A DNA stretch of 64,000 nucleotides from Patescibacteria group bacterium. Lineage in GTDB: Bacteria; Patescibacteriota; Microgenomatia; Levybacterales; UBA12049. This document shows, piece after piece, positions 4,214 through 60,670 of the stretch; position 1 is the stretch's first letter, and the number at the start of each line of letters is the position of its first letter. Position numbers and translations under genes: made by a program. Below the pieces are notes generated by a model. The model made no database searches and had not been told where the DNA came from. It saw nothing but the letters and a program-made list of their open reading frames with translations. The stretch lies in assembly GCA_041743715.1 (NCBI GenBank), contig JBGTMH010000032.1, forward strand, positions 131-64,130, read 5' to 3'.

Positions 4214-5239
4214 TTAATTCGAGAATTCCTGACTATACATTTTCCCGTAAATTCCTCCATCTATCACCCCAATACCGATTTTATTAAAATTTGGACTTAA
4301 GATATTGGTTCGATGTCCTGGACTATTCATTAGTCCTTGCATAGCCAATGGTGTACTCGGCGCCAGTGCTAGATTCTCTCCCGCATACTCGTATTGGATC
4401 CCCACATCATCCATGCGGTCAAACGGTGTTAATCCTTCAGGCGTCTGGTGTGAGAAATAGCCACGTTTGAACATATCATCGGAGTGCGACCGTGCGACCT
4501 CGCGGAGACTGTTGTCAAAAGCCAGAGGCGGTAAACCTTGCTTTGTCCGCTCAGTATTGACCAATCGGAACATTTCTTGCTCTGCTTTTTCATCAACACC
4601 GCCATTTTTGACAGTGAAGTGAAGCACCACAGTCTTATCGCTTTTAGGCTCAACTGTTAAGAAATTCAATGTTTCATTGAGCGCGCCACCAAAAAGTTCG
4701 TTCAGATGCTTTTCAAAAAGTGAGGTATTGGCCACAAGCCGTGAACCTATACCTGACTCAGCCACAGCGCTTTTAATAAGCGGCGAGGAGGGAAATGTCA
4801 CAATAACACTGAGCAAAAATGACAAAATGATAAACGCAGAAACCATCCCTGGCAAAATGCCAAACCAATGACTGGCTCCTTTCAACCAATTCGTAAATCT
4901 ACTCCGTGGCAATCCAGGCAGATACCGCACAAGTCTCCGAGAAAAAAGTGTCAATATTATTTCACTCAAAAACGCAATAAGAAAAAAACTGGCGGCATTT
5001 GAAATACCGATAGGTAAAGCAAAAAACAGTGTCAATACAAAAGCCACATGTGTATAGAATTTCAGTGCAGCAATAAAAGAAACAATAAAGCTAACCAGAT
5101 CCAAAAAAGCCAATGTAAATCCAAGCGTATACCCTTCGTAAATATAAAAAAGGATAATACATAAGATAACAATATCTAGAAAATTAATCCCTCCCGGAAG
5201 TTGCGAAACAAAACCAGAAATTGCACTGAGTATATCCAT
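4214..5239 (-). CDS. CvpA-like membrane domain fused to a CAP/SCP (YkwD-like) domain
   Basis: 341 aa. The N-terminal four TM helices resemble colicin V production protein CvpA. The C-terminus (VNTERTKQGLPPL..SHSDDMFKRGYFSH..AGENLA..MNSPGHRTNIL) matches the CAP/SCP domain. Confidence 0.6.
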   Translation of the reverse strand: MDILSAISGFVSQLPGGINFLDIVILCIILFYIYEGYTLGFTLAFLDLVSFIVSFIAALKFYTHVAFVLTLFFALPIGISNAASFFLIAFLSEIILTLFSRRLVRYLPGLPRSRFTNWLKGASHWFGILPGMVSAFIILSFLLSVIVTFPSSPLIKSAVAESGIGSRLVANTSLFEKHLNELFGGALNETLNFLTVEPKSDKTVVLHFTVKNGGVDEKAEQEMFRLVNTERTKQGLPPLAFDNSLREVARSHSDDMFKRGYFSHQTPEGLTPFDRMDDVGIQYEYAGENLALAPSTPLAMQGLMNSPGHRTNILSPNFNKIGIGVIDGGIYGKMYSQEFSN

Positions 5240-6233: not shown

Positions 6234-6737
6234 TTATTTTTGCAATGCATTCATTTCTCTCCCATTAGAAGTCAGAGGTGGTATTCCTGGAAGTATTCGC
6301 CATCTCCTGTGCATCAATATATTGTTCCGCTCTCTCTCTTCCTCCCACTCTTTTTCACTCATTGACAATGTTCGTGAATCTTTTAACATATTCATGTAAT
6401 CATCAAGTGATAGTATTTCTCCGGTCATTTTTAAAATATTATCTCTGAGTTGATCGCCACCCAAATTGATTGCTCGTTTAAGAGTAGTCGTTCCGTCTGA
6501 TTCTAAAACGCGTTTTACTTCCAAAATATCTGCTTTGAACATGCCTCCGGCTCCAATATCCGTAACTATCGCAGGACCATAGAAAGGAGCATTCCGGTCA
6601 CCAGATAATGATAAAAAAATCGCACCAAATTGTATCTTTACTGGTGTTGCGAATAATTCATTTCGTAGTATCCTGATACTTTCCATTGAAAGTGCAGGTC
6701 CCTGTCTGGGAAATATTATAGGTTGTCTCTCTGACAT
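6234..6737 (-). CDS. Hypothetical protein, possibly a degenerate PEP-utilizer swivel domain
   Basis: 167-aa ORF directly upstream of the PPDK_N gene on the same strand. By eye, GDRNAPFYGPAIVTDIGAGGMFKADIL resembles the swivel motif tdP..p.f..a.aIVTd.GG..SHaAIv, but the phospho-His position is not His. Confidence 0.45.
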   Translation of the reverse strand: MSERQPIIFPRQGPALSMESIRILRNELFATPVKIQFGAIFLSLSGDRNAPFYGPAIVTDIGAGGMFKADILEVKRVLESDGTTTLKRAINLGGDQLRDNILKMTGEILSLDDYMNMLKDSRTLSMSEKEWEEERERNNILMHRRWRILPGIPPLTSNGREMNALQK

Positions 6738-9163: not shown

Positions 9164-9856
9164 TTATACATGGAGCTCTTGGAGTTTTGATTGAAGTAAT
9201 TGGTATTGTTTTTCAGGAGTATCGAGACCAAATAGAAAACTCGTTGCGACGAAACGTGTAGCACCCGCGGCGGCGGCGATGGCAATTGTTTCATCGTTGA
9301 TCCCTCCATCTACCTCAATTGGCAAAAACTCCATTTTTTCTCTGATGGATTTTACTTTCGTAAGTAATCGCTCCTCAAACTTTTGTCCTGAAAATCCTGC
9401 CTGAATTGTCATAACAAGTATGGCGTCTAAATCATCAAGCGGGACTGTAATCGCGTCCACGGGTGTTTGTTTATCAATGGATAAAGCAACTTCTCCGAGT
9501 AGTTGCGCTTGAGCCACGAATTCTTCTTGATCTGACATCTTCTCAATTTGTCCAATAAACCGGCGGAATCCAGCATCAGCCCATTTTTTAAGATGATTGA
9601 TCGGCTCTTCAACCATAAGATGGACTTCAAAAAAGACACCTTTTTCACCTGTCAGTAACCCAGCCTCAACGCCTGGTAACTCTTTTGTATACTTCTTAAA
9701 CGGCTCAGGATCAGCAAATGTTGTATTCTGAGCAAATTTTCCATCAATAACATCAATATGAATTGTTTTTGCAAATGGCTTGACCAGTTCAATCTTTTTC
9801 TCAATTTCTGAAAAATCTTTGTTTTCAGTACCGGGACTGGGGATTATTTCAAACAT
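9164..9856 (-). CDS. rpe: Ribulose-phosphate 3-epimerase-like protein
   Basis: 230 aa. HIDVIDGKFAQNTTF, EVHLMVEEP and VDGGIN match Rpe TIM-barrel motifs. It lies downstream of rpiB on the same strand. Confidence 0.7.
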   Translation of the reverse strand: MFEIIPSPGTENKDFSEIEKKIELVKPFAKTIHIDVIDGKFAQNTTFADPEPFKKYTKELPGVEAGLLTGEKGVFFEVHLMVEEPINHLKKWADAGFRRFIGQIEKMSDQEEFVAQAQLLGEVALSIDKQTPVDAITVPLDDLDAILVMTIQAGFSGQKFEERLLTKVKSIREKMEFLPIEVDGGINDETIAIAAAAGATRFVATSFLFGLDTPEKQYQLLQSKLQELHV

Positions 9857-9860
9857 AATG

Positions 9861-9908
9861 GATTTAAGACTTAAGACTTAAGACTTAGGATTTAAGAATT
9901 CTTAAATC
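9861..9908. repeat. TTAAGAC x3 tandem heptamer followed by a perfect 20-nt palindrome
   Basis: TTAAGAC occurs at 9864-9870, 9871-9877 and 9878-9884. GATTTAAGAATTCTTAAATC at 9889-9908 is self-complementary. All lie in the rpiB-rpe spacer. Confidence 0.7.
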
Positions 9909-9923
9909 TTTACTCTTAAATCA

Positions 9924-10427
9924 TTAATCTTTTTCTATTTCTTTTATTTTCTCAACTCTCCTCTTATGCCTTTCCTCTGTTGGACCTGAAAAATTGAGCC
10001 AAAGCTTGACTGCGGTAAAGATATCTTCTTCTCTCATAAATCTGATACCAATTGAAAGCATATTTGCTCCATTGTGTTCTCTCGTGAGTTTTATGATCTC
10101 ATAGGGATCACTGCTCAATCTTCCCTCTATATTAACTGCTTGTGTCGGAACAGCCGGTGTATAAAATAAAGCGCATCTCACACCCTTAAATTTATTTGCC
10201 ACCATCGCCTCTCCCTGTCCCGACCCACCAAAAATGATTCCCAAAGAATTCTGTGGATCTTTTGAAACTTTTTCCGCGGCTTTACTTATGAGATCGGGAT
10301 AATCATCAAATTTATCGTACTGATATGCGCCACAATCCTCTGCATCATACTCAGTCTCAAGGAGCATTTTATATACTTTATCTTTTAATTGAACCCCTGT
10401 ATGGTCAGCAGCAAGATAGACTTTCAT
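9924..10427 (-). CDS. rpiB: Ribose-5-phosphate isomerase B
   Basis: 167 aa. MKVYLAADHTG and GGSGQGEAMVANKFKGVRCAL match the RpiB/LacAB family. Confidence 0.85.
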   Translation of the reverse strand: MKVYLAADHTGVQLKDKVYKMLLETEYDAEDCGAYQYDKFDDYPDLISKAAEKVSKDPQNSLGIIFGGSGQGEAMVANKFKGVRCALFYTPAVPTQAVNIEGRLSSDPYEIIKLTREHNGANMLSIGIRFMREEDIFTAVKLWLNFSGPTEERHKRRVEKIKEIEKD

Positions 10428-15080: not shown

Positions 15081-16805
15081 ATGCCCAAGAAAAAAATTCT
15101 CTTATTGTTTTGTCTTGTTCTCATGTTCCTCTCACCTTTTCTTCCGACACAAGCAGTTTTTTCGCAAGCCGGAACTTCTCAGGGTGATTTAGATAATATT
15201 AACAAACAAATAGCCAACTTAAACGATGAATTGAACAAGTCAGTCGCAGCTACCAAACCGCTGCAGTCAGAGCTTGATAAAATACAAAAACAAATGGTTT
15301 CGATCAAAAATCAGGTCGCTGCGATTGATACCGACTCCAAATTGAAACGAAAACAAATTGATGATGGCTTTAGAGAATTGGCAGAAAAAGAAGCGCTCAT
15401 CACCGCAACTATCAGAAACTTTTACGTCAAAAGCTATCATGATTCACCATTTTTGATCTTTTTCTCCGTGGGAGACGCATTTGAGATCACACAAGCACTT
15501 GCGTACCAACGGGCAAAAACCAGGCAAGACAAAGCGATCATTACCAATATAGCCTTGACCATTACAGATCTGGAAAAGAAAAAAGTTTTGCTTGAACAGC
15601 AAGAAAAGTTTTTAACTGCTGCGCGTGTAAACCTTGATCAACAAAGTAAAAAGCTAGACAAAGTGGTCCAAGAAGCACAAGGCTACCAAAAAGAACTCAC
15701 CGGTAAAATTGCTGCATTAAGCGCCGAACAACAGGCAATTGTCAATGCCAAAAGCGGTAGCTTTACTTTCAGCTTAAATGACGGTGAATCTGCAGACGAG
15801 TACCTCTCTTCCGCGAAAGGTTTTCGCGAATCTGCGCCCGGCGGCTCCTTCGCTCTGTTCTCTTTTGGTGCATATACACACAGAAATGGCATGAGCCAAT
15901 ATGGAGCAAAAGCCCGTGCAGATCAAGGGCAATCAGTTGAAGATATTTTGAAAGCATATTATCCCAACGCAACGCTGAAAAAAGATTATGCCGTAACAGG
16001 GACGATTACCGTCGACGGCCACGGGTCTATGTCGTTTGAAGACCAATATCTGCAAGGCATTTACGAGATGCCTGGTACCTGGCATGTGAATGCGCTGAAA
16101 GCTCAAGCAATCGCTGCAAGAACCTTTGCAATTAAACGTACAAATAACGGACAAAGCTCCATTTGTACAACTGAGGCGTGCCAGGTTTTCAAAAATACGC
16201 CGAAAGGTGGTGCGTGGCAACAAGCTGTTAATGAAACCAAAGGCTGGGTATTGGTTGATAGTGGTGGTAATCCAGTCTCTACTCAATACGCTTCAACCCA
16301 TGGTGGCTTTAGTAATACTGCCGGCTGGGATACAACCGATGGGAGCGGTGGCTCTAACTTTATCGATAAATCGTATGAAAAACTTGGTGGTTCTCCGTGG
16401 CTTTATAAAGCATGGTGGCGAGAACATTACAGTAATGCAGGAGCTACCTGCGGACGATCAAATCCATGGCTCAATGCGACAGAAATGGCAGATATCGTCA
16501 ATGCTGCAGTTGCTCTCAAAACTTCTGGCATCGAAACAAGTAGGATCACACCGATCACAACTGCCTGCTGGGGAGGCAATCCGTACAGTATGGACGAACT
16601 CCGCAACTTAGTGTCTGGCAAAGGTGGAATAAGTGCAGCAACAAGCGTGTCTGTAACTCAGGGAAATGGGTCAACGAATAGTGTGACCATTAATGGGATT
16701 TCGATGAGTGGGTCAGAATTCAAACAAGCTGTCGCTCTTCGTGCTCCCGGCTATGTACGTATCCCACAAAGTGGCTTCGCCTTTTTTAATATCGAGCAAA
16801 AATGA
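15081..16805 (+). CDS. SpoIID/LytB-domain protein with N-terminal coiled coil
   Basis: The ORF track starts at 14979, but the ATG at 15081 gives a signal peptide (MPKKKILLLFCLVLMFLSPFLPTQA). SpoIID motifs are ALKAQAIAARTFAIKR, CTTEACQVFK and STQYASTHGG. Confidence 0.75.
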   Translation: MPKKKILLLFCLVLMFLSPFLPTQAVFSQAGTSQGDLDNINKQIANLNDELNKSVAATKPLQSELDKIQKQMVSIKNQVAAIDTDSKLKRKQIDDGFRELAEKEALITATIRNFYVKSYHDSPFLIFFSVGDAFEITQALAYQRAKTRQDKAIITNIALTITDLEKKKVLLEQQEKFLTAARVNLDQQSKKLDKVVQEAQGYQKELTGKIAALSAEQQAIVNAKSGSFTFSLNDGESADEYLSSAKGFRESAPGGSFALFSFGAYTHRNGMSQYGAKARADQGQSVEDILKAYYPNATLKKDYAVTGTITVDGHGSMSFEDQYLQGIYEMPGTWHVNALKAQAIAARTFAIKRTNNGQSSICTTEACQVFKNTPKGGAWQQAVNETKGWVLVDSGGNPVSTQYASTHGGFSNTAGWDTTDGSGGSNFIDKSYEKLGGSPWLYKAWWREHYSNAGATCGRSNPWLNATEMADIVNAAVALKTSGIETSRITPITTACWGGNPYSMDELRNLVSGKGGISAATSVSVTQGNGSTNSVTINGISMSGSEFKQAVALRAPGYVRIPQSGFAFFNIEQK

Positions 16806-22537: not shown

Positions 22538-22962
22538 GGGGATGACTTGATTCGACGAGAAAAGTACCTTAAAACTGCAAGCCGACGATGATCAATAGTC
22601 GTAAAACTGGTCAAAAAATAAATGCTGATTCTAGCATAAAAGCAAAGCTGGAAGCGATGCGTGAGGAAACTCTTGCTGAGCTCCATGCCCTTACCGGCAA
22701 CAGCTTTGTTGGCCAAAAAGCTTTGGCATACGCCTAAGCTCTAAAGCCTGTTTATACACGTCTTCCCTCACTGGGACTGTATAGGCACAAAACAGGTGAG
22801 GAAAATAGTAAAAAGTTTGGTTACGCTTTTACTATTATAAGTAACCTATACTTTGTTACTCCAGCCGACAGGAAACGGCAAAGTGAATTTTAATAATCGG
22901 CTACGCTTGTAGATGTTTTAACTAATTTTACTCGGACTCGGTATCATTCACCGACATCTCCA
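22538..22962 (+). ncRNA. ssrA: tmRNA (SsrA)
   Basis: The 5' end GGGGATGACTTGATTCGACGAG matches the tmRNA consensus. The 3' end has a T-arm (TCGGT ATCATTC ACCGA) and CATCTCC-A, which pairs with the 5' GGGGATG to give a G3:U wobble. An internal frame ends ..GGC AAC AGC TTT GTT GGC CAA AAA GCT TTG GCA TAC GCC TAA, with the stop at 22735-22737. CCA is not encoded. Confidence 0.8.
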
Positions 22963-22970
22963 CAAAAAAA

Positions 22971-22994
22971 ATCCGCTTAATTGCGGATTTTTTA
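22971..22994 (+). terminator. Rho-independent terminator after tmRNA
   Basis: The stem is ATCCGC (22971-22976) with GCGGAT (22983-22988), loop TTAATT, followed by TTTTTT. An A-run precedes it, so it could act in both directions. Confidence 0.6.
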
Positions 22995-23067
22995 TTTGCA
23001 AACTCAAAATTATCTACCATTACAGGCAGAATTGGTGTAACGTTTATTTTTTTGCTACTATTATTAT

Positions 23068-28072: not shown

Positions 28073-30013
28073 ATGCGTTTTTCTGCCCACGTTGGATTAT
28101 GTGCACGGCTTTTTTACTCACTGCTCCTCTTTGCAATGGTAGGTGTTGTCTTCCTTATCAATTTTTCCTCACCAGCGCTAGCTCAATATCCATCGGTAAC
28201 TCCACAAGCGCAACAAACATCAAACTCGTACCGTGATTTTCGCACACCAGATGTTGATGCAAATGTCCCCCGCAATCATCATACGTATACACAAGTAGTA
28301 GTCATTGATGTGTTATCAGCATTTATTTGTCAGCTGACTGGCATTGATCCCGCAAATCCCCGACAACCATGTCTAGACCTTAATCCCCAAACAGGCAAGC
28401 TGGGTTTTGCGCAACAACCCCCAAATCAGTTCGGGCAAATACAAGATGACAAACCGCAAGTAGGCGGCGCTCTTGGGACAATGACACACCTCGTCGCGGC
28501 CCTCTATACACCGACCGTCAGCTCAAGTCAATATTTCACCTACCTTGCAGGCAACTTTGGGATTGTCAAACCCGCAATCGCCCAACAACCGCAAATTCCT
28601 GCAGGACAACCTGGCTCCAACGCACAAGTTGCTGAAAATTGTTCTCTCTCGCAGTTTGGTTATGGTTTTTGTGGTCTACAACCTATCTTTCAACTATGGA
28701 AAACTTCAAGAGATTTTGCATATGCACTCTTGGTTATCGCTTTTATCGTACTCGGCGTTGGCGTAATGACACGGTTTCGTGTCGATCCACGTACTGTTAT
28801 GACTCTCCAAAATCAAATCCCTCGGGTGATTATAGCCATTCTGCTCATTACCTTTTCTTACGCCATTGCTGGCATTATGATTGATCTGATGTGGACCGTG
28901 ACCTATGCGGGAATTAACGCTATTACCACCGGTTCAAAATCGCAAGTGGCACTTGATTGTGATCCAGAAACCATAAAACCGCTCGCTGATTCAGCTTCTC
29001 TGCAACTTTTAAATCAACCATTCAGTTTTGTAAATACTATTTTCCTCAGAGACTGTGAGGGAAATGTTAATAGTGGAATCGTTAATCTTTCTGGCCGCGT
29101 TAGTGATGCATTCGGCGATTTAATCACCAATATTATCTATAACGTCTTCGGTTGGAACTTTGAGAACATAGATTGCGGGATAGGACCATGGGGCAAACTG
29201 CAAGATTGTTTAATAGGATTTGGTGTGTGGGTCACGAAATTGATTGTTGCCGCAATCATTATTATTGCTCTTCTTATCGCGCTTTTTAGGTTATGGTTCG
29301 AACTCATAAAAATGTATATTTCGACTTTGATTTTTGTTATCCTCGGGCCTATCTGGATCGTATTTGGGCTTATTCCCGGACGGCCCTTAGGGTGGGAGAA
29401 ATGGCTTCGTATCATATTTTCCAACCTTGCTGCATTTCCTCTCGTTGCGTTTCTTCTTGTATTCGCGCGTGTTATGGTTGATGCTATTCCTGAAACACCT
29501 TCCCCTCACAGCATTTTCATACCTCCGCTGATAGGAAATCCTAATGTATCGGCATTTAGTGTTCTGATAGGCTTTGGCGCAATTATGATGGCACCTACTA
29601 TTCCAAATATGATCCGCGAAAAGATGAAAGCACCACCGAGCAAAACCGGCACAGCTATTGCTGCAGGTATTGGAGCCGCAGCCGGAGCAGTTACTGCACC
29701 AGCAGCAAAACAATGGAAGAAAATGAATAGAGTCAATCCGACGACTGGTCAAGCTGAAGGTTCACTGGCAATCTGGAGAAAGCGAGCAGCTAATAGCGTA
29801 ATACCTAAGAAAATCCAAGACGTTAGAGCCAGAAGAAAGAAAGCTTGGAAAGCGAGTCTGGACGATCCTGGATCATTCAGAGCAAGAAACAAAGAAATGA
29901 AAAATCCACCACCCCCGCCGGCACCAACCCCAACGCCTACACCGGCGCCAGGAACTGGTACTGGTACTGGTACTGGTACTGGTACTGGTACTGGTACTGG
30001 TGGAACACCTTAG
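28073..30013 (+). CDS. Large polytopic membrane protein, candidate VirB6/TrbL-like channel component
   Basis: 646 aa with a signal peptide ending ALAQ, a ~200-aa periplasmic-type region, at least 6 TM helices, and a basic/PT/GT-rich C-terminal tail. The call rests on topology and position at the head of the T4SS-like locus, not on a recognised motif. Confidence 0.4.
   Translation: MRFSAHVGLCARLFYSLLLFAMVGVVFLINFSSPALAQYPSVTPQAQQTSNSYRDFRTPDVDANVPRNHHTYTQVVVIDVLSAFICQLTGIDPANPRQPCLDLNPQTGKLGFAQQPPNQFGQIQDDKPQVGGALGTMTHLVAALYTPTVSSSQYFTYLAGNFGIVKPAIAQQPQIPAGQPGSNAQVAENCSLSQFGYGFCGLQPIFQLWKTSRDFAYALLVIAFIVLGVGVMTRFRVDPRTVMTLQNQIPRVIIAILLITFSYAIAGIMIDLMWTVTYAGINAITTGSKSQVALDCDPETIKPLADSASLQLLNQPFSFVNTIFLRDCEGNVNSGIVNLSGRVSDAFGDLITNIIYNVFGWNFENIDCGIGPWGKLQDCLIGFGVWVTKLIVAAIIIIALLIALFRLWFELIKMYISTLIFVILGPIWIVFGLIPGRPLGWEKWLRIIFSNLAAFPLVAFLLVFARVMVDAIPETPSPHSIFIPPLIGNPNVSAFSVLIGFGAIMMAPTIPNMIREKMKAPPSKTGTAIAAGIGAAAGAVTAPAAKQWKKMNRVNPTTGQAEGSLAIWRKRAANSVIPKKIQDVRARRKKAWKASLDDPGSFRARNKEMKNPPPPPAPTPTPTPAPGTGTGTGTGTGTGTGTGGTP
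29951..29998 (+). repeat. In-frame hexanucleotide repeat GGAACT + (GGTACT)x7 encoding (Gly-Thr)8
   Basis: A perfect GGTACT tandem array spans 29957-29998, inside the 3' end of the VirB6-like gene, just after a PT-rich tract. Confidence 0.9.
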
Positions 30014-33019: not shown

Positions 33020-33203
33020 GCTTGCAGTGTAGGGTAACTATGCGAAGGGTGCTTTATATTGAGGTAACAGAAGGATTACAGAAGCGTTATAATTTTCAAT
33101 TTCTAATTTACAATTTTTAATCAAATCACAATATTGCAATTTTCAAACGCTTAAAATATTGAGTCATTGAAAATTCATTGTAAATTGAAAACTGAAAATT
33201 AAT

Positions 33204-34532
33204 TTACGCAGCAAACCTGAATCCTCTTCCTTTAATCGTTTGCAGATGCACGGGATGATTGGCATCTTCTTCAATTTTACGACGGACTCGAAAGACGAGT
33301 TGATCAACAGCTTGATCTGTGATACCTGCTGTTGATTTAACTCCTTGCCAGACGATAGTAATCAGTTCGTCACGCTCCACAATTCGCGCCGATTGCTGCA
33401 ACAAATAACGAAGCAATCTGAATTCTGACGAGGTTAGTTGATCTGAGAGCACAACTGCACCTTTGCGAATTGTATTGGTATTTTCATCATAGACAATTTT
33501 CTGAATACTCTTCGCCGCTTCTTGGTACTCTGCGGTGATGAACTGGGCAAACAAAGGAATTTGAATTTTGTTCCCATGAATTAAGCCAACCTTTTCCAAA
33601 TAATCATTGACATCACGGTCAGCAAATGTACCCTCGAGCAAATCTGATTGCTCAGCAGGCGAGAGCGAAAACCAAATCTCATTTAATGCTCCTCTTACAA
33701 TCGTTTGTGTCAACAAAAATTCGCTGAGGTTTCCCGGTGTACTACCATGAGCAAGCAGTGTTTCAACACAAAATTTTGTTACCTTTCCGTGACCGCCGGT
33801 CAATGTCAGTACTTCTTTGAGAATCTGTGCAGACAGCTTCTTCCCAGTTAGCTTTTCAATAAACGAAAGTCGGAATGTACTAAATACCTCCTCATGCATG
33901 GCTACATACACGATATGACCTGCTACAAATTCGTAATATTCTGCAAGCAATGTCGGTTCAAGCATATTCTCCAAAGGTCTATTAACTGAAAAAACAATCG
34001 AGAAACGGTATTTTGCTCTATTGCGAAGAACACGAAGATTGGTAAAAAATTGACTTGTAACAGTTGGGACATACTCCTCAAAACGATCAAACAAAAACAC
34101 AATTGTTATTTTTTTCTCAAGAGCCATATAGTCAACTGCTTCTTTAAAGCCCTGAAATAACACCAACTCATCATTGAATTGGAGATGTTCCTGGAATTTA
34201 CCAACTACTACTTTATGTTCTTCAGTCATACCTCGTTCTCGGAGTGACTCGGTGAGATTAAGGAATAAATATTTCATCACATCAAAGAGATCACGATTGC
34301 GGATCTCTGAAAAATCAATCGCAACAAAATGTGTCTTTTTTTCGGCTGTACCGAGATGTTTTTGTCGGATATGTTTGTTATAGGCAAAAAGCCCAAGGAG
34401 TGTCGACCGACTCACGCCTGGGATGCCGACAACCTGACATGACCTGCCATCTTTTATATAGCTGACTATCTTTGCCATTTCCTCAAATCTCGTAGTATCA
34501 GGAAATTCTGCTTCAAAATGTTCGTCGTGCAT
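33204..34532 (-). CDS. AAA-like NTPase domain fused to C-terminal OmpR/PhoB-type winged-helix DNA-binding domain
   Basis: 442 aa. The P-loop-like VVGIPGVSRSTLL has Arg where Lys is expected, and the Walker-B-like segment is ITIVFLFDRFEE. The C-terminus LTSSEFRLLRYLL...VDQLVFRVRRKIE...IKGRGFRF matches the Trans_reg_C pattern. Confidence 0.7.
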   Translation of the reverse strand: MHDEHFEAEFPDTTRFEEMAKIVSYIKDGRSCQVVGIPGVSRSTLLGLFAYNKHIRQKHLGTAEKKTHFVAIDFSEIRNRDLFDVMKYLFLNLTESLRERGMTEEHKVVVGKFQEHLQFNDELVLFQGFKEAVDYMALEKKITIVFLFDRFEEYVPTVTSQFFTNLRVLRNRAKYRFSIVFSVNRPLENMLEPTLLAEYYEFVAGHIVYVAMHEEVFSTFRLSFIEKLTGKKLSAQILKEVLTLTGGHGKVTKFCVETLLAHGSTPGNLSEFLLTQTIVRGALNEIWFSLSPAEQSDLLEGTFADRDVNDYLEKVGLIHGNKIQIPLFAQFITAEYQEAAKSIQKIVYDENTNTIRKGAVVLSDQLTSSEFRLLRYLLQQSARIVERDELITIVWQGVKSTAGITDQAVDQLVFRVRRKIEEDANHPVHLQTIKGRGFRFAA

Positions 34533-34654
34533 AAACCTATTCTACCGACTTACTTATCAATTTACAATTTTTAATTTTGCTCTTGCTTTTCTTCTTACAA
34601 CTTTGTTATTGTGAATATATGGACTATCTAGCACTTACCCTACCAGGTGGAAAG

Positions 34655-34939
34655 ATGATTGACGCACCGGCTAGCGTTCCCACAGGAGGAACTGACGTAC
34701 TCGCAAAAGTGATCGGCAACGCAATCAACATCATGCTTATTATTGCTGTATTCGCAGCACTCGTATTTCTCATCCTTGGTGGCATCCAATGGATTAGATC
34801 AGGAGGAGATAAAAGCCAAATCGCCTCAGCCCGTTCAAAAATAACCATGGCAATTGTCGGTCTGGCCATCGCGCTCTTTGCTTTCCTTATCGTTAACCTC
34901 TTCGGTGTCTTCTTCAATGTCAAACTTTTTGGAAGATAA
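34655..34939 (+). CDS. T4SS pilin-like protein (VirB2/TrbC-like), copy 1, no obvious signal peptide
   Basis: Two-TM hairpin with the conserved loop ILGGIQWIRSGGDKSQIASARSKI. The ATG at 34655 follows AGGTGG. The track ORF starts at the TTG at 34577, and the ATG at 34619 is an alternative start. Confidence 0.55.
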   Translation: MIDAPASVPTGGTDVLAKVIGNAINIMLIIAVFAALVFLILGGIQWIRSGGDKSQIASARSKITMAIVGLAIALFAFLIVNLFGVFFNVKLFGR

Positions 34940-34991
34940 AGTTGATCTATTGACAAAGGTCAAAAAATTGTTTTATCATGGATACAGAGAT

Positions 34992-35393
34992 ATGAAAAAG
35001 ATTTTAGGAACACTCATAACAGCAGGCGCGTACTTAGGATTTGCAGTTTCAGCATTTGCGACAGGAGGTCAAGTTAATCCTTGTCCAGGTGCCGGTCAAT
35101 TTAGTAAACTGTGTAACTTAAATGCAAATAATATCGGTCCCCTCGTTGGAGCTGCAGTAACTTTCATTTTAATAATCGCAGTTTTGATCGCTCTCTTCTT
35201 CCTCATTTTTGGTGGTATCCGATGGATTACATCAGGTGGAGACAAAGCAAAGGTAGAAAGCGCCCGTGGAACAATCATTGCCGCAATCATTGGTTTGGTT
35301 ATCGCATTCTTAGCATTCTTTATCCTATCACTAGCACTGAGCTTCTTCGGACTCAGCTTGAACAACCTGCAATTGCCTACAGCTATTAAGTAA
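34992..35393 (+). CDS. T4SS pilin-like protein (VirB2/TrbC-like), copy 2
   Basis: Signal peptide MKKILGTLITAGAYLGFAVSAFA, then two TM helices flanking IFGGIRWITSGGDKAKVESARGTI. This is the pattern of the monoderm/CPR T4SS pilin family. Confidence 0.7.
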   Translation: MKKILGTLITAGAYLGFAVSAFATGGQVNPCPGAGQFSKLCNLNANNIGPLVGAAVTFILIIAVLIALFFLIFGGIRWITSGGDKAKVESARGTIIAAIIGLVIAFLAFFILSLALSFFGLSLNNLQLPTAIK

Positions 35394-35571
35394 GGCACTT
35401 ATCACAAAGAACTCATCCGCACTGACTTGTCACATTTATATACTTGAGCGCGTTCTTTGCATTCTACTGAAAAAATACTTGATGAGTAAGTGAAGATTCA
35501 CTCTAGCCTCGTATGATCTTCATTTTTCTTCTTGCTTTTTTATACTATTATTTGTTAGGCTTAAAAGAGAT

Positions 35572-35955
35572 ATGAAAAAACTTATTGCTTTAACCCTTCT
35601 TGTTGTCACCTTACTTGTTGCTGTCCCGCCTGCGTATGCACAAGGCAAAGAATGGGGAGATTGTGTCGATCCCCAAACAAAAATTGCTACTTTGAGATGC
35701 ATTCCAATTGTTTTCGGCAATATCGTTAGTGCCGCACTAGCGTTTGTCGGAGCAGTCTCGGTCATTCTTATCGTATACGCAGGTATCAGATTTATTACAT
35801 CAGGAGGAGATCCCAAACAAGTCGCTGCAGCTCAAAAAATTATTACTTACGCCCTCATTGGACTCGTCATTGTGCTCTGTTCGTTTGCAATTATCTACTT
35901 TATCAGTTACGCGACTGGTGTCAAGTGTATCACCAAATTTGGCTTTGGCTGCTGA
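35572..35955 (+). CDS. T4SS pilin-like protein (VirB2/TrbC-like), copy 3
   Basis: Signal peptide MKKLIALTLLVVTLLVAVPPAYA, then two TM helices flanking VYAGIRFITSGGDPKQVAAAQKII. The C-terminus is Cys-containing. Confidence 0.7.
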   Translation: MKKLIALTLLVVTLLVAVPPAYAQGKEWGDCVDPQTKIATLRCIPIVFGNIVSAALAFVGAVSVILIVYAGIRFITSGGDPKQVAAAQKIITYALIGLVIVLCSFAIIYFISYATGVKCITKFGFGC

Positions 35956-36079
35956 CGCTCCATAAATTAGTTTTCACAAAATAGCTTGAATTCCTATCCT
36001 GTTTGACACACTTTGTAGGGGTTGCAATCAAATTTTTCACGTTATACACTTTTAGCAACAGTAGACTCTAGTGCGAAGT

Positions 36080-36162
36080 GTATCAAAAGTATCAAGAGTA
36101 TCAAAAGCTTTTCAGTTTTTGGTTCCCTTGATACACTTGATACCCCTTGGTACTCTTGATAC
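36080..36162. promoter_or_regulatory. Array of seven GTATCAA/TTGATAC heptamers with ~9-nt phasing
   Basis: GTATCAA occurs at 36080, 36089 and 36098 (plus strand). The complement TTGATAC occurs at 36128, 36137 and 36156, with TTGGTAC at 36147. The array ends 13 nt before the PrgI-like start codon. Confidence 0.6.
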
Positions 36163-36174
36163 TCTTTAGAACTT

Positions 36175-37575
36175 ATGGATCAACACCCAATACCACAAGA
36201 CGTTACCGGATTTCAATTTAAATTGATCGGCACCATGACAGTCAAACAATTTGGCTATGTCGCAGCAGGCGCGATCATGGCGGTTGCACTCTACTATTTG
36301 CCTCTTCCTCCCCTTTGGCTCCTTTTCAAACTTATATTCGTTCCGATTTTTGGCGCAAGTGGCGTAGTCATCGCTTTTGTACCCATCGAAGGCCGTCCGA
36401 TAGATGTTATGACAACAAACTTTGCGAAAGCGCTTTTTTCTCCCAATCAATATATTTACCGCCGTGCCGGAAGAAAATTAAGTTTTTCATCTGTCGCAGC
36501 TTTTAAGCCGCCAGCTGTATCTAAAACAGATCCAAAGAAAATTGAACATATAACACCTGCAAAAAAACAAATGAATCTGAAAGAAGAACAACTCCGTGCG
36601 TTTCTCCAAAGCTCCCAAGGGGTAGGCAAAACTGAGGCTGACAAAAAAGAGGCAGCCTTTCTCAAAACACTTACCATTACTGCACCTCAACTTGCGGCAC
36701 CAACAATTGCCAAGCCGTCCCCTACTAAAATTATCCCCACTGTTCACCTAACAGTTAGCACTCCTCAAGCCAAACCAGCTCTTATAGCTAAACCCATAAG
36801 TCCTCTTCAACCCAAACCTACAGCACCTGTCTTACCACTTCAAATGCCACCGCCTGCACCGGTCATACAATCGACCAGCCCAACACCAACACCAACACCA
36901 ACACCAGAAACGCCGGACATACTCGCAAAAAAAGAAAGTCAACTAGAGCAAGAACTGATACAAGCCAAGCAGGAAGAAACAAAACCTCTTGCTCCTTCTG
37001 CGCATGCAGCAGCTCATCAAAAAGTTGAAGAACTCGATAAACAAATTCAAGAAATACATTCCCAAAAGCAAAAACTTGAAGAAGAACTCACCCGTTTACA
37101 AACTCAGTTGACTTTACAAAAAAATCCAACTCCTCCCACAGTTCCTCAATCACCAGCACCAGTTCAAGTTCTAGCCCCATCAAAACCTGCCATCCCCATA
37201 CAAGATCCAAAATTTGTTAAGATCGTACAAAAAACAGTAACGAGCCAGACAGATATTCCGCAGGTTTCCGATTCGCCAAACGTCGTAGTAGGTATTGTAA
37301 AAGATCCGCGAGGTAATGTCCTATCAAATATCTTAGTTGAGGTAAAAGATAAAGACGGTAATCCTGTCAGAGCGTTTAAGACCAATCCTCTTGGCCAATT
37401 TGCCTCTGCAACACCGCTTAGTCCCGGCGTTTATACCATGGAGCTTGAGGATCCCAAAAAGATGCATAACTTCGATGTCATCCAAATTACAGCCAACAAC
37501 CAAATTATGAGACCGATAGAAATCATCTCACATGATGCAAGAGAAGCCCTACGACAACAGCTATTTGCAAATTAA
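36175..37575 (+). CDS. PrgI/VirB3-like membrane protein with Pro-rich linker, coiled coil and C-terminal carboxypeptidase-regulatory-like domain
   Basis: 466 aa. The N-terminus FQFKLIGTMTVKQFGYVAAGAIMAVALYYLP plus a second TM fits the PrgI-family pattern. The C-terminus VVGIVKDPRGNVLSNILVEVKDKDGNPV..TNPLGQF resembles a CarboxypepD_reg-type beta-sandwich. Confidence 0.5.
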   Translation: MDQHPIPQDVTGFQFKLIGTMTVKQFGYVAAGAIMAVALYYLPLPPLWLLFKLIFVPIFGASGVVIAFVPIEGRPIDVMTTNFAKALFSPNQYIYRRAGRKLSFSSVAAFKPPAVSKTDPKKIEHITPAKKQMNLKEEQLRAFLQSSQGVGKTEADKKEAAFLKTLTITAPQLAAPTIAKPSPTKIIPTVHLTVSTPQAKPALIAKPISPLQPKPTAPVLPLQMPPPAPVIQSTSPTPTPTPTPETPDILAKKESQLEQELIQAKQEETKPLAPSAHAAAHQKVEELDKQIQEIHSQKQKLEEELTRLQTQLTLQKNPTPPTVPQSPAPVQVLAPSKPAIPIQDPKFVKIVQKTVTSQTDIPQVSDSPNVVVGIVKDPRGNVLSNILVEVKDKDGNPVRAFKTNPLGQFASATPLSPGVYTMELEDPKKMHNFDVIQITANNQIMRPIEIISHDAREALRQQLFAN

Positions 37576-41555: not shown

Positions 41556-42113
41556 ATGAAACAAAAGCAAAAAGAAAATATTTTTATCATAGCGCTAGCG
41601 GGACTCCTTCTTATCATCGTTTTCTGGATTGCGATCCTCGCTTTTTCCGCAGAACCTACTTTGCAGCCGGAACAACAAATTCAACCAACAATTACAATTA
41701 CACTTACTCCAACTCCCACACATGAAACAACGTCTCCCCCCGTCAAATATGATACCGCGGCACAGGATAAGCTCTTAGATAAATTTAATAACAGACAGGC
41801 ACTCTCTTCAAATGATACATTTGCCAAGGCTAAGATACTTGCATCACTTCCGCCGGGTCAACAATCAGGAATTGTCTATAAAACCTCAAATATAAGCATC
41901 GAGTACGTTCATTCTCCAGACCTTTTCCAAATAGAAATTCTAACAACTGACATCGCTCAGGCCAAGGCAGCAGCAAATGTATGGTTCCGGGCACAAGGAA
42001 TGAGCCAACGGGGAATTTGTGACCTTCCGCTACTATTCTATTTAAATTGGGAAATTGCAAATCAAATGCGGGGACAAAACATCCAGTTTAGCCCGCTTGG
42101 GAACGGTTGTTAA
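41556..42113 (+). CDS. Bitopic protein, paralog family P, copy 1
   Basis: The ATG at 41556 follows AAGGAAAGGA. It has an N-terminal TM, a T/P linker and a ~115-aa domain ending GICDLPLLFYLNWEIA...FSPLGNGC. The track ORF is extended upstream. Confidence 0.6.
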   Translation: MKQKQKENIFIIALAGLLLIIVFWIAILAFSAEPTLQPEQQIQPTITITLTPTPTHETTSPPVKYDTAAQDKLLDKFNNRQALSSNDTFAKAKILASLPPGQQSGIVYKTSNISIEYVHSPDLFQIEILTTDIAQAKAAANVWFRAQGMSQRGICDLPLLFYLNWEIANQMRGQNIQFSPLGNGC

Positions 42114-42114
42114 T

Positions 42115-42687
42115 ATGAAACTTTACGATTACTTATTACAAAATAAAAAGCTCGTCATTCTTGTCACACTGTTTTTCATACTTTTGCCTCTTGGTTTTAG
42201 CAGAATACCCTACCCTACTAATAACTTCATTGAAAAAACTTCCCTTTCCCCTACTGTCTCTCAATTACAAAATACCACCCAAGAGACAACACCTACGATG
42301 CTTATACCGACAACACAGATAGTAGATGATGATCCACATAGTAAACTTCTTGACTTAATACAAAATAGACGACAACTTTCAGATGCTGACAGTACTGCAA
42401 AAAAGAATCTACTTCTACAATTACCAAACGGTGAAAGTTCTGGAAATATATATCTTTCTTCTACCATCAGAGTTGAGTATGTTCGAGGGCCCGATTTATT
42501 CCAAGTAGAAATATTAACCACAAATGTTGCGCTTGCAAAAGTCGAAGCTGCGGCCTGGTTTCAACAAAATGGTATCAGCCAAGAGGGTATTTGCAATCTT
42601 CCGGTAAGTTTTTATCTTAACTGGGATATTGCACAAAAACTCAGAAATAGTGATACTGTATTTAACCCCTTACCAAATGACTGTTAA
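42115..42687 (+). CDS. Bitopic protein, paralog family P, copy 2
   Basis: The start is 1 nt after the P1 stop (TAAtATG). The architecture is the same, and the domain ends GICNLPVSFYLNWDIA...FNPLPNDC. Confidence 0.6.
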   Translation: MKLYDYLLQNKKLVILVTLFFILLPLGFSRIPYPTNNFIEKTSLSPTVSQLQNTTQETTPTMLIPTTQIVDDDPHSKLLDLIQNRRQLSDADSTAKKNLLLQLPNGESSGNIYLSSTIRVEYVRGPDLFQVEILTTNVALAKVEAAAWFQQNGISQEGICNLPVSFYLNWDIAQKLRNSDTVFNPLPNDC

Positions 42688-42688
42688 T

Positions 42689-43210
42689 ATGAAAACATTA
42701 TTAAAAAAATTGCGATTTGATTCTTGGGCACTGTCGTTTTTAGCATTTATCATCGTTTTTCCACTCATTTTACTCGCGGCAAAAAACACACTTAATGTTA
42801 CTCCCGCCCAACAAACACATTTTCAGGAAACAACCAGTTCTGAAACAAACAATCCTCCTTCCGGAGGAACTCTTGAAAAGGTGGAGAACAGACAACCACT
42901 TTCCGCCACTGATGCAAAGGTCAAAGCAAAACTCCTTGCGCTTCTTCCTGACGGACAAAAGGCTGGTATTATTCACCAATCACCAAATATCAGAGTAGAA
43001 TATATTCTTTCTCTTGATCAATTTAATGTGGAAATTGTTAACACCAATATTGCAAATGCAAAAAAAGAAGGCAACGCATGGTTTCTAGAACAAGGCCTGA
43101 GCCAGAAAGGATTATGTGATCTTCCTCTTCGTTTTTACCTCAATAATGCCGTTTTCGAACAAATGCCTGATATACAAGACACATTCAACCCCTTGCCTGA
43201 TGGCTGTTAA
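42689..43210 (+). CDS. Bitopic protein, paralog family P, copy 3
   Basis: The start is 1 nt after the P2 stop, with the same TGTTAATATGAAA junction. The domain ends GLCDLPLRFYLNNAV...FNPLPDGC. Confidence 0.6.
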   Translation: MKTLLKKLRFDSWALSFLAFIIVFPLILLAAKNTLNVTPAQQTHFQETTSSETNNPPSGGTLEKVENRQPLSATDAKVKAKLLALLPDGQKAGIIHQSPNIRVEYILSLDQFNVEIVNTNIANAKKEGNAWFLEQGLSQKGLCDLPLRFYLNNAVFEQMPDIQDTFNPLPDGC

Positions 43211-59365: not shown

Positions 59366-60670
59366 ATGAACGCATCGGTACTCGAGGCATCATATCCAAT
59401 TACGTTTCAACAAAAGGAAGCTGAGAAGTTGGGCGAGTATTTACGCCAGCGGCAGTCCGTAAATATCGTCGGTATGAAACGGGTCGGCATCAGTAATTTC
59501 CTTCGTTTTTTTCTGAGACATGACGATATTATTTCTACCTACATAAGTGACAAGGAGAAACATTTATTTATTCCTGTTGATCTCAATGATCTTGTAGAAC
59601 AGGAAATCTATCCTTTCTGGACCCTCACGCTCAAGAGGATTGTTGATGCATCTGACCAATCGACACTGCCGCCTGAAATAAAAGTTAAAATCAGCGATTT
59701 ATTTGTCAAAAGTATTCAATTTCAGGACCTGTTTTTGGTTATTGATAATATCAGACGTGCGCTGGTATTAATCGTTGAAAATGGGTATATGCCCACTATT
59801 TTTTTCCTCCGTTTTGATCGGTTAAAAGACAGCTTTAACCCATCGTTCTTTGATAATCTCGAAGGCTTGCGGGACGCGGCACATGGCAATCTTTCCTATG
59901 TCTTTACGAGCTATCGGAGTTTGGTGAGTATTTTCCCAGGCGCCAGATCTGCTCTCTCGGTTTTTGCCCAAACCATGTGTGTGAGGCGTATAGGCGATGC
60001 GGATATGAAGGTTGTTTACGAAACCTACAGAAAACGGTATAAAATGACGCTTACGCCACCCATGGAAAAGTCGTTGTTTGCGGTAATAGGCGGTTATTTG
60101 CAGTATTTACAATTAGGATTAATTTATTTAAATGAGATTACGAAGTCACTTATTACGGAAAAAGAAATTATCAATGCATTATTATCAGATGAACGTATAG
60201 TCTTGCAGTCTGAGGAACTTTGGGAAAGCTTAATTCCTGACGAGCAAAAGGTTCTCATGCAAGTCGCGAAAAAACAAAAAGTTGAGCAAGCAGATCAGGA
60301 ACGGAGTAAATATTTGTGGGACACAGGATTTATTTGTGAAGTAGATGGCAAATCACAGGTTTTTAGTTCGCTCTTCGCGCAGTACATTTTGCATATAGAG
60401 CAAGAAGAAAGTAAAAAGAAAAAAACAGCACATCTGACACGTAAAGAAAATTTATTGTTTAATTTGTTGAAAGAACAATTGGGAGAAATTTGCGAACGGG
60501 AGAAAATAGTAGAAGTCGTCTGGCCAGAATCCCAAGAATTCGGCGTCTCAGACTGGGCAATCGACCGCCTGGTAGCCCGAGTCCGGCTCAAGCTCAGAGA
60601 ACAGGACACCCCTTATGAAATTCAAACCGTTCGTACCCGCGGTTACAAGTTGACTCCGGTAAAAACTTGA
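59366..60670 (+). CDS. AAA-like domain + C-terminal OmpR/PhoB-type winged helix (paralog of 33204-34532)
   Basis: The ATG at 59366 gives MNASVLEASYP. The P-loop region is degenerate (IVGMKRVGISNFL), with TIFFLRFDRLKD. The C-terminus is LTRKENLLFNLL...IDRLVARVRLKL...VRTRGYKL. Confidence 0.65.
   Translation: MNASVLEASYPITFQQKEAEKLGEYLRQRQSVNIVGMKRVGISNFLRFFLRHDDIISTYISDKEKHLFIPVDLNDLVEQEIYPFWTLTLKRIVDASDQSTLPPEIKVKISDLFVKSIQFQDLFLVIDNIRRALVLIVENGYMPTIFFLRFDRLKDSFNPSFFDNLEGLRDAAHGNLSYVFTSYRSLVSIFPGARSALSVFAQTMCVRRIGDADMKVVYETYRKRYKMTLTPPMEKSLFAVIGGYLQYLQLGLIYLNEITKSLITEKEIINALLSDERIVLQSEELWESLIPDEQKVLMQVAKKQKVEQADQERSKYLWDTGFICEVDGKSQVFSSLFAQYILHIEQEESKKKKTAHLTRKENLLFNLLKEQLGEICEREKIVEVVWPESQEFGVSDWAIDRLVARVRLKLREQDTPYEIQTVRTRGYKLTPVKT

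Follow-up and report, generated by a model that had tools for sequence, protein, structure and literature searches.

A stretch of 64,000 nucleotides (here called the window) on contig JBGTMH010000032.1 of a Patescibacteria group bacterium of the Levyibacteriota (assembly GCA_041743715.1) contains a type IV secretion system (T4SS) cluster, and directly upstream of its machinery operon lies a phased array of the heptamer GTATCAA and its complement TTGATAC. Here we analyse this array and the leader of the prgI/VirB3-like gene in which it is predicted to lie. The locus is organised as follows, with positions counted from the first letter of the window.

33204-34532, minus strand: ATPase with a Trans_reg_C winged helix-turn-helix (wHTH) domain, a regulator of 442 aa (Pfam)
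34577-35955: three T4SS_pilin genes (Pfam)
36071-36104, plus strand: left arm of the array, period 9, with a degenerate GTGCGAA at 36071 and exact GTATCAA at 36080, 36089 and 36098
36119-36162, plus strand: right arm of the array, period 9-10, with a degenerate TTGGTTC at 36119, TTGATAC at 36128, 36137 and 36156, and TTGGTAC at 36147
36175-37575, plus strand: prgI/VirB3-like gene, first of the T4SS machinery operon (Pfam PrgI and TraG P-loop; synteny kept in relatives)
between prgI and the VirB4-like gene: TraC-like gene, 221 aa
38241-40313: VirB4-like ATPase gene (Pfam)

The array and its predicted fold

Seven heptamers, and the exact reverse complementarity of 36089-36100 (GTATCAAGAGTA) to 36151-36162, had been reported in a first-pass annotation of the window and were confirmed by direct reading. 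The gap between the last copy and the ATG at 36175 is 12 nt, one less than reported there, and a period of 9 bp does not bear out its description of the repeats as helical-phase, which would be about 10.5 bp. When two in-phase degenerate copies are counted, the array holds about 4 forward and 5 reverse units. Tandem Repeats Finder (TRF) gave a period of 9 for each arm, at 3.1 and 4.3 copies. Exact GTATCAA occurs 16 times in the 64-kb window against 9.6 +/- 3.3 expected, and 6 of these 16 fall inside 83 nt. The phased dimer GTATCAAnnGTATCAA, at no more than 3 mismatches, gave 19 matches against 8.4 expected, a count reached in 0 of 100 shuffles; seven of the 19 are within the array and another lies 150 nt upstream, at 35918. 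The array is clearly non-random. Chance is the wrong null model for it, because tandem repeats arise via replication slippage.

The units are not equally free to vary along their length. Only one substitution separates the seven clear heptamer cores, an A to G change (TTGGTAC) that pairs as G.U in sense RNA, and the same variant recurs in metagenomic contigs L095 and L167 (L numbers denote the contigs compared). Over 49 nt of core there is 1 change, compared with 6 over 15 nt of spacer (p = 4e-4). Units that are exact complements of each other are not nested, F1 matching R2 and F2-F3 matching R5-R4, and we read these relations as a record of duplication history, not as the optimisation of one helix.

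Folding of the array region, a check that the first-pass annotation had suggested, gave a single long hairpin with z values from -4.6 to -4.9.

36060-36163, plus strand: long imperfect hairpin with apical loop UUUC at 36110-36113 and the AUG region unpaired (RNA fold)

The minimum free energy of the array region as RNA was -37.7 kcal/mol (z = -4.57). With the start codon included it was -40 kcal/mol (z = -4.88), and the AUG was unpaired in the centroid structure. The predicted helices are the heptamers, at 7-10 bp, and the spacers of 2-3 nt mostly form small internal loops, giving a "beaded" hairpin. About 45 pairs are predicted over about 104 nt of a leader of about 117 nt. The hairpin starts 2-3 nt past the predicted 5' end and ends 11 nt before the unpaired AUG, which has no Shine-Dalgarno (SD) sequence. 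A DNA fold of the array had the same topology as the RNA fold (z = -3.55).

Rfam at gathering thresholds gave no match at the array, and a permissive Rfam search of it returned only sub-threshold microRNA precursor hairpins, at 14-22 bits versus gathering scores of 70-100. A leader peptide was considered and rejected: the sole open reading frame (ORF) crossing the array (36022-36159, TTG start) opens 5' of where transcription is predicted to start, and there is no ATG in the leader.

A conserved promoter and a variable leader

A scan of species-representative genomes for VirB4 homologs yielded 79 loci; all but a few belong to Levyibacteriota or other Microgenomates. Their upstream regions place the array downstream of a set of conserved elements.

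35971-35978, plus strand: distal conserved box TTTTCACA, at the same relative position in most of ~45 orthologous loci
36002-36015, plus strand: box TTTGACACACTTTG, consensus TTTGAcctAcTTTG, TTTGACnnACTTTG (anchored alignment of orthologous upstream regions)
36022-36050, plus strand: promoter P1, with -35 TTGCAA at 36022-36027, a 17-nt spacer containing the invariant TTTTCACG, and -10 TACACT at 36045-36050
36057-36058, plus strand: predicted P1 transcription start, where orthologs with 7-nt spacing have the A of their ATG

With no more than 2 mismatches, TTTTCACGTTATAC recurs in about 45 orthologous loci. Near-invariant in about 45 loci, to a PrgI identity as low as about 50%, are the 17-mer TTTTCACGTTATACACT (36034-36050), the placement of TTGCAA 17 nt before TACACT and the flanking boxes. 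The window has one copy of the full 17-mer and a single match to it at 3 mismatches (31624), a number that chance can explain. TACACT and the prgI ATG behind it are only 7-14 nt apart in about 20 orthologs, indicating that TACACT is the -10 element and that these mRNAs are leaderless or nearly so. As the array is downstream of P1, it should be transcribed, within a leader of about 117 nt; as P1 lies between the pilin gene and the array, this leader would be that of the machinery operon. A lineage-specific insertion would then turn a leaderless gene into one with a leader of about 117 nt. The first-pass annotation had also offered a large RNA stem separating pilin from machinery expression. The stem is supported, as one long predicted fold downstream of a conserved promoter; the separation is not, since that promoter stands between the pilin gene and the array.

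Gene starts throughout the window were also compared. An SD-like motif is present at only 5 of 52 long ORFs. TAnnnT is found 6-7 nt before 15 of the 52 first ATGs versus 18 of 353 internal ATGs (p = 1e-6), and the extended -10 TGnTAnnnT at the same distance before 10 of the 52 versus 0 of the 353 (p = 5e-10). The genome appears largely SD-less, with leaderless mRNAs widespread. Examples of an extended -10 located 6-7 nt before an ATG are at 15081, 17844, 40361, 60701 and 61537 on the plus strand and at 6737, 20387, 24841 and 57987 on the minus strand.

The DNA-binding domain of the regulator at 33204-34532 is 59-82% identical in 20 orthologs (tblastn), with the segment ...KSTAGITDQAVDQLIFRxRRKIEE... 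near-invariant, and the recognition helix is near-invariant in them, whether the leader is as short as 7 or as long as 141 nt. In relatives where the upstream gene was seen, the Trans_reg_C regulator is syntenic and divergent from the pilin genes. A conserved recognition helix implies a conserved site; the boxes at 35971-36050 are therefore the obvious candidates, the array being in one genome only. By this comparison, the syntenic ATPase-wHTH regulator has its best candidate site in these boxes, the box at 36002-36015 upstream of the -35 is likely an activator or regulator site, and P1 is probably regulator-dependent. An array unit, TTGATACACTT, resembles the box at 36002-36015, and one unit resembles the conserved box TTGACACACTT upstream of the -35. 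Three TTTTCAC/TTTGAC boxes in 35971-36062 are spaced 31-32 bp apart, about three helical turns. In the one comparative T4SS study searched (PMC12102498), a term search gave no mention of promoters and no regulator analysis, and the Levyibacterial promoter/operator upstream of prgI was not found described there.

Among the orthologous loci compared, the array occurs in the window only. The exact heptamer was absent upstream of prgI in 67 of the 67 loci with a locatable gene start, and the array was also absent from six further relatives retrieved via protein look-ups. Absence from orthologous loci had been named in the first-pass annotation as refuting its reading, and absence is what was found. 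This counts against a conserved regulatory site; on this comparison, the array is not a conserved operator. The window's PrgI is known from its source contig only, and the next PrgI is 64% identical.

What varies among the orthologs is the leader itself, whose length ranges from 7 to about 190 nt. In the closest subclade, the leader 5' ends (TTTAGCAAyAG...) and 3' ends (...TTAGAAyTTAT...) align and the middles are unrelated. The leaders of at least 35 nt, from 27 orthologs, are non-homologous and on average more structured than shuffled sequences, with the window's leader at the extreme. The minus strand folds just as well, both in the window (z = -4.1) and in the ortholog leaders (mean z of -2.2 antisense versus -2.0 sense). 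Strand asymmetry of folding was dropped as a discriminator between RNA and DNA, no asymmetry having been seen.

In relatives a small hairpin follows right after the predicted start, with the stem AAGAC/GTCTT in several and lineage-specific stems in others (GATACT/AGTATC in L004, AATAC/GTATT in L001, GCAC/GTGC in L011 and AGACAC/GTGTCT in L203). The L004 and L203 stems align with the window sequence ...CTAGTG...AGTGTATC, so that the GTATC unit plausibly grew from the descending hairpin arm via tandem duplication. More distant orthologs carry tandem repeats directly 5' of prgI or traC-like start codons (L038, L074, L013 and L015), and in L013 and L015 perfect heptamer arrays precede the traC-like gene. 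L073 has (ATACTTA)n at 5178-5215 and 6236-6280, before consecutive prgI-like and traC-like genes and with identical flanks GCGCT ... CTCATG, and a TTCGAA-type inverted array is common to L042, L043 and L060. Short tandem repeats with periods of 7-12 nt are dispersed through about 1 Mb of related loci. Among the orthologous contigs, L001, L007, L055 and other SMAG/TPA records are labelled Acidiferrales, Sulfotelmatobacter, Gammaproteobacteria or Nanoarchaeia; they carry the Levyibacteria-type T4SS locus and promoter, and the taxon labels of these metagenome-assembled genomes look wrong.

Further features were seen around the cluster. A second ATPase with a Trans_reg_C domain, at 59366-60670, is a paralog that shares 24% identity with the regulator at 33204-34532. 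The spacer downstream of the regulator gene contains, at 33090-33186, AT-rich tandem repeats (TAATTTT/TAATTTACAATTTC and TCATTGAAAAT). An exact-protein look-up found no identical protein on record for the adjacent pilin. Inside the T4SS cluster, at 42055-43210, are three tandem paralogous genes for small secreted proteins of about 190-290 aa, with common C-terminal halves ending ...NPLPxxC, followed by an NlpC/P60 hydrolase gene. A perfect (ACTGGT)x8 at 29954-30001, in the 3' end of a 646-aa ORF (28073-30013), is probably a coding TG/GT dipeptide repeat. The genes dnaN and dnaA are at 46.6-49.3 kb of the window; chromosomal, origin-proximal T4SS of the type found here are described for Patescibacteria in PMC12102498.

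Similar hairpins at other gene junctions

The first-pass annotation had noticed no comparable array elsewhere in the window. One is present in the spacer between two genes outside the T4SS cluster.

9857-9932, minus strand: palindromic (TTAAGAC)n/(TCTTAAA)n hairpin in the spacer from rpiB (9924-10427) to rpe (9164-9856)

Beginning at the stop codon, this hairpin takes up the rpiB-rpe spacer to within 3 nt of the ATG; its predicted RNA fold has -23.5 kcal/mol (z = -5.45). Its unit is unrelated to GTATCAA and not -10-like.

A metagenome scan for three phased GTATCAA copies returned at least 120 loci, a count that says little without a control heptamer. Among the matches listed, most are plain 9-nt minisatellites in unrelated organisms, and palindromic arrays almost superimposable on the window's are found in L095, L137, L141 and L167. 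The L141 array lies between ilvC and ilvA and the L167 array between atpG and atpD. The L141 IlvA is closest to Patescibacteria proteins, and a relative of this contig, L209, shares its assembly with the ortholog locus L024. In the ilvC-ilvA spacer (L141:5057-5155; L206-L209), four relatives with IlvA proteins 81-89% identical each have a different long hairpin, of -27 to -61 kcal/mol. The comparison suggests that a hairpin is kept at this junction while its sequence turns over fast, the GTATCAA array being one solution among many.

The hexamer GTATCA/TGATAC occurs 46 times versus 41 expected, and no hexamer excess was seen outside arrays in the fetched contigs. As the hexamer is at expected frequency outside arrays, it marks neither a dispersed element nor an uptake signal. 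An element dispersed in the manner of repetitive extragenic palindromes (REP) or miniature inverted-repeat transposable elements was also rejected, with one array in 64 kb and an unrelated unit at 9857-9932. A DNA uptake sequence (of the DUS/USS type) was rejected on the 16 exact heptamers versus 9.6 expected, 6 of them in the array. GTATCAA 9-nt arrays also occur in-frame in coding sequence (L086:12862-12886; L146:1971-1995 and 4579-4606). They use two reading frames, with the peptides ...KGIKSIKGIKG... and ...VSKVSKVSNVSK..., and one such insertion is common to homologous genes of two contigs.

Weighing the explanations

We favour, at a probability of about 0.42, a species-specific palindromic expansion of short repeats in a 5'-proximal leader hairpin that acts, if at all, as an RNA stem-loop. 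The ancestral structure would be a small stem-loop of the type that sister lineages carry just past the transcription start of the T4SS machinery operon, and slippage would have amplified a 9-nt unit (the heptamer with a 2-3-nt spacer) on both of its arms. Transcribed from P1 as part of the leader, the array would fold in vivo into the one beaded hairpin predicted, and as a 5'-proximal stem-loop it may alter mRNA stability and/or translation of the operon. We infer the function of the array from sequence and fold prediction. Several points weigh against this reading. The transcription start at about 36057-36058 is a prediction only. Cores are far better conserved than spacers and the spacers are unpaired, a pattern that a very recent origin or a sequence-specific constraint would explain no less well than selection for a stem. 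The non-nested unit complements point to duplication history. Folding is good on both strands, and selection on an RNA palindrome is therefore not separable from selection on a DNA palindrome. Finally, with the nearest PrgI only 64% identical, neither compensatory change nor copy-number variation can be observed in the array.

That the array is a neutral by-product, expanded by slippage or template switching in a tolerant spacer and transcribed without a selected function, is unlikely in our estimate, though far from negligible. Such an origin would account for an array found in one genome among about 70 orthologous loci with a readable upstream region, for leaders of 7 to about 190 nt with unrelated middles even where the ends align, for repeats of 7-12-nt period dispersed over about 1 Mb of related loci, and for complements that look like duplication history. 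It accounts less well for hairpins that persist at junctions despite sequence turnover and for cores significantly more conserved than spacers, and long palindromes are usually unstable unless tolerated or selected. We are more doubtful that hypervariable beaded hairpins form a selected intergenic module in Levyibacteria and related lineages of the candidate phyla radiation (CPR), with the TGATAC version doubling as extended -10s. Selected modules of this kind may fill the spacer from the stop codon (or the transcription start) to the next start codon. If so, the array would fold the P1 leader, add a near-leaderless promoter and maybe an antisense promoter interfering with P1, amounting to a lineage-specific rewiring of the T4SS.

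Promoter-like elements can indeed be read within the array.

36137-36165, plus strand: candidate promoter P2, TTGATA at 36137-36142, 17 nt, TG-a-TACTCT at 36157-36165 (sequence match only)
36077-36104, minus strand: promoter-like site in the left arm, TTGATA-16-TACACT with TG, pointing at P1 (consensus scan)

A twin of P2 lies one repeat pair upstream (TTGATA at 36128, TGgTACTCT at 36148-36156), and the minus-strand site looks like a by-product of the palindrome. The array might consist of reiterated promoter elements, the last unit serving as P2 and restoring a near-leaderless prgI mRNA while mirror copies may fire at P1; we regard this, too, as doubtful. R2 (TGATACACT), R4 (TGGTACTCT) and R5 (TGATACTCT) all fit the TGnTAnnnT of the genome, as the units read TGATACnCT, and extended -10s 6-7 nt before start codons are strongly enriched in the window. 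The sole core substitution falls at the free n position, the unit TTGATACACTT resembles the conserved -10 region GTTATACACTT, and a promoter-like site was called on the minus strand of the left arm. Three independent GTATCA palindromic arrays of metagenomic contigs, in L141 (ilvA), L137 and L167 (atpD), end with TGnTAnnnT 6, 7 and 8 nt before the ATG. However, the P2 hexamer ends 9 nt before the ATG, compared with 6-7 nt at confidently identified gene starts in the window, and TACTCT, which agrees with TATAAT at 3 of 6 positions only, went uncalled in the consensus scan. Such an element is near the ATG in only 1 of 24 long-leader orthologs, is absent from the ilvC-ilvA hairpins of L141's relatives, and has no counterpart in the 9857-9932 array, which is not -10-like. 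We estimate that a few percent of random 9-nt units would contain TGnTAnnnT in one phase or strand or another, which weakens the case for P2.

It is improbable that the array is a multi-site operator, with heptamers bound by a repressing or looping protein such as the adjacent ATPase-wHTH or a ribbon-helix-helix (RHH) repressor like omega or MetJ. Arrays of heptads or octads, direct and inverted, are bound by the omega repressor of pSM19035 and, as metboxes, by MetJ. In the present array the cores are conserved and the spacers free, the units are similar to the conserved box TTGACACACTT that precedes the -35, and a Trans_reg_C regulator found in 20 orthologs (tblastn) is encoded nearby. An operator for an OmpR-type wHTH protein, as the first-pass annotation proposed, would nonetheless be expected to consist of direct repeats at a phase of about 10-11 bp and to be conserved alongside the recognition helix. 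The period found is 9 bp on the left, off helical phase for tandem binding of the OmpR/PhoB type, and 9-10 bp on the right; the arms are inverted; and the array is absent from all readable orthologous upstream regions despite a regulator whose recognition helix hardly varies. In scans of the window, neither the promoters of the regulator and pilin genes nor other places outside the array showed a GTATCAA-like site, and arrays of like units lie between the housekeeping genes ilvC-ilvA and atpG-atpD. A resemblance to CtsR, Fur and omega-type operators was set aside, as their periods do not match. A DnaA box (TGATACACT, conserved TTATACACT; compared by eye) was rejected: one unit fits, and the dnaA/dnaN origin region is about 13 kb away. 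An origin of transfer was rejected as well, the cluster being chromosomal and vertically conserved and the array not; Patescibacteria T4SS lacking key conjugation components, as described in PMC12102498, also count against it.

We consider it very unlikely that the array is a contingency locus, in which slippage varies the number of 9-nt units within the population and so tunes T4SS expression. Each arm has three to four near-perfect tandem copies, at least three being what TRF recovered and what such a locus calls for, perfect tandem heptamers precede prgI/traC-like starts in L073, L013, L015, L038 and L074, and the hmw genes offer a precedent (PMC2424069). Against this, the copy number is low, the repeats are downstream of the promoter and change neither a frame nor a promoter spacer, and the sequence is on one contig only, so that no polymorphism is visible. 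It is likewise very unlikely that the hairpin acts as an attenuator or terminator, stopping or reducing transcription from the pilin genes and P1 and thereby setting the pilin-to-machinery ratio. The hairpin is long and stable and is followed by CUCUUU, the similar arrays of L141, L137 and L095 end in TTTT, and such arrays occupy gene junctions with plausibly different stoichiometries. Yet a consensus scan of 34400-36400 called no intrinsic terminator at the array, whose tail is CUCUUUAG, with a U run that is short and interrupted. The canonical terminator with a GC stem and T run at 22961-22998, after the transfer-messenger RNA gene, shows that the local terminator style is different. Many orthologs have no leader at all, and the perfectly conserved P1 directly upstream would serve no purpose if its transcripts ended some 100 nt later.

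Significance and comparison with known systems

T4SS-like machinery of Patescibacteria is linked to an epibiotic lifestyle, and PrgI is reportedly essential for epibiotic growth in a Saccharimonas strain. Across Levyibacteria, prgI appears to be driven by a near-invariant, probably regulator-controlled promoter, with structured lineage-specific insertions between promoter and gene. If the hairpins matter, they give access to post-transcriptional control in organisms that hardly use SD sequences; if they do not, they illustrate a fast turnover of palindromic short repeats in reduced genomes. For annotation, the candidate regulatory site is the set of conserved boxes at 35971-36050, not the heptamers. 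The more valuable by-products of the analysis are the following: 1) a putative Levyibacterial T4SS promoter/operator; 2) apparently widespread leaderless, SD-less starts; and 3) recurrent fast-evolving intergenic hairpins.

The array can be set beside several known systems. It shares with the operator arrays of RHH proteins (omega, MetJ) and of OmpR/PhoB a set of 7-nt cores, direct and inverted, near a promoter. Its period, in contrast, is 9 bp and not 7, 8 or 10-11, it is not conserved together with the regulator, and arrays of the same unit lie at unrelated housekeeping junctions. Leaderless promoters with an extended -10 (TGnTATAAT) are approached by units that read TGATACnCT, the last of them 9 nt from the ATG, but this distance exceeds the local norm of 6-7 nt, TACTCT makes a weak hexamer, and the element recurs in a palindromic arrangement. 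With REP and bacterial interspersed mosaic elements (BIME) it has in common an imperfect palindrome in the transcribed spacer of co-directional genes, the same build being found between housekeeping genes. Unlike these, it is no dispersed multi-copy family, and each locus has its own sequence. The 7-bp repeats of Haemophilus influenzae hmw1A/hmw2A are likewise short tandem repeats, placed after the promoter region and ahead of the start codon of a surface-machinery gene, and a larger number of them upstream of hmw correlates with less hmw mRNA (PMC2424069). The window's repeats differ in forming an inverted pair of arrays and in their low copy number. Finally, 5'-terminal stem-loops are established mRNA stabilisers (Emory/Bouvet/Belasco 1992 and the papA and aprE leaders, as cited in the reference list of PMC3997798). 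Compared with the 5' stem-loops of ompA and papA in Escherichia coli and aprE in Bacillus subtilis, the array hairpin is much longer, is built of tandem 9-nt units with looped-out spacers, has no SD sequence, depends on a predicted start and belongs to a CPR host. Like them, it belongs to the leader of an operon for a surface structure, with a start region predicted to be unpaired and a stable hairpin that would begin within a few nucleotides of the predicted 5' end.

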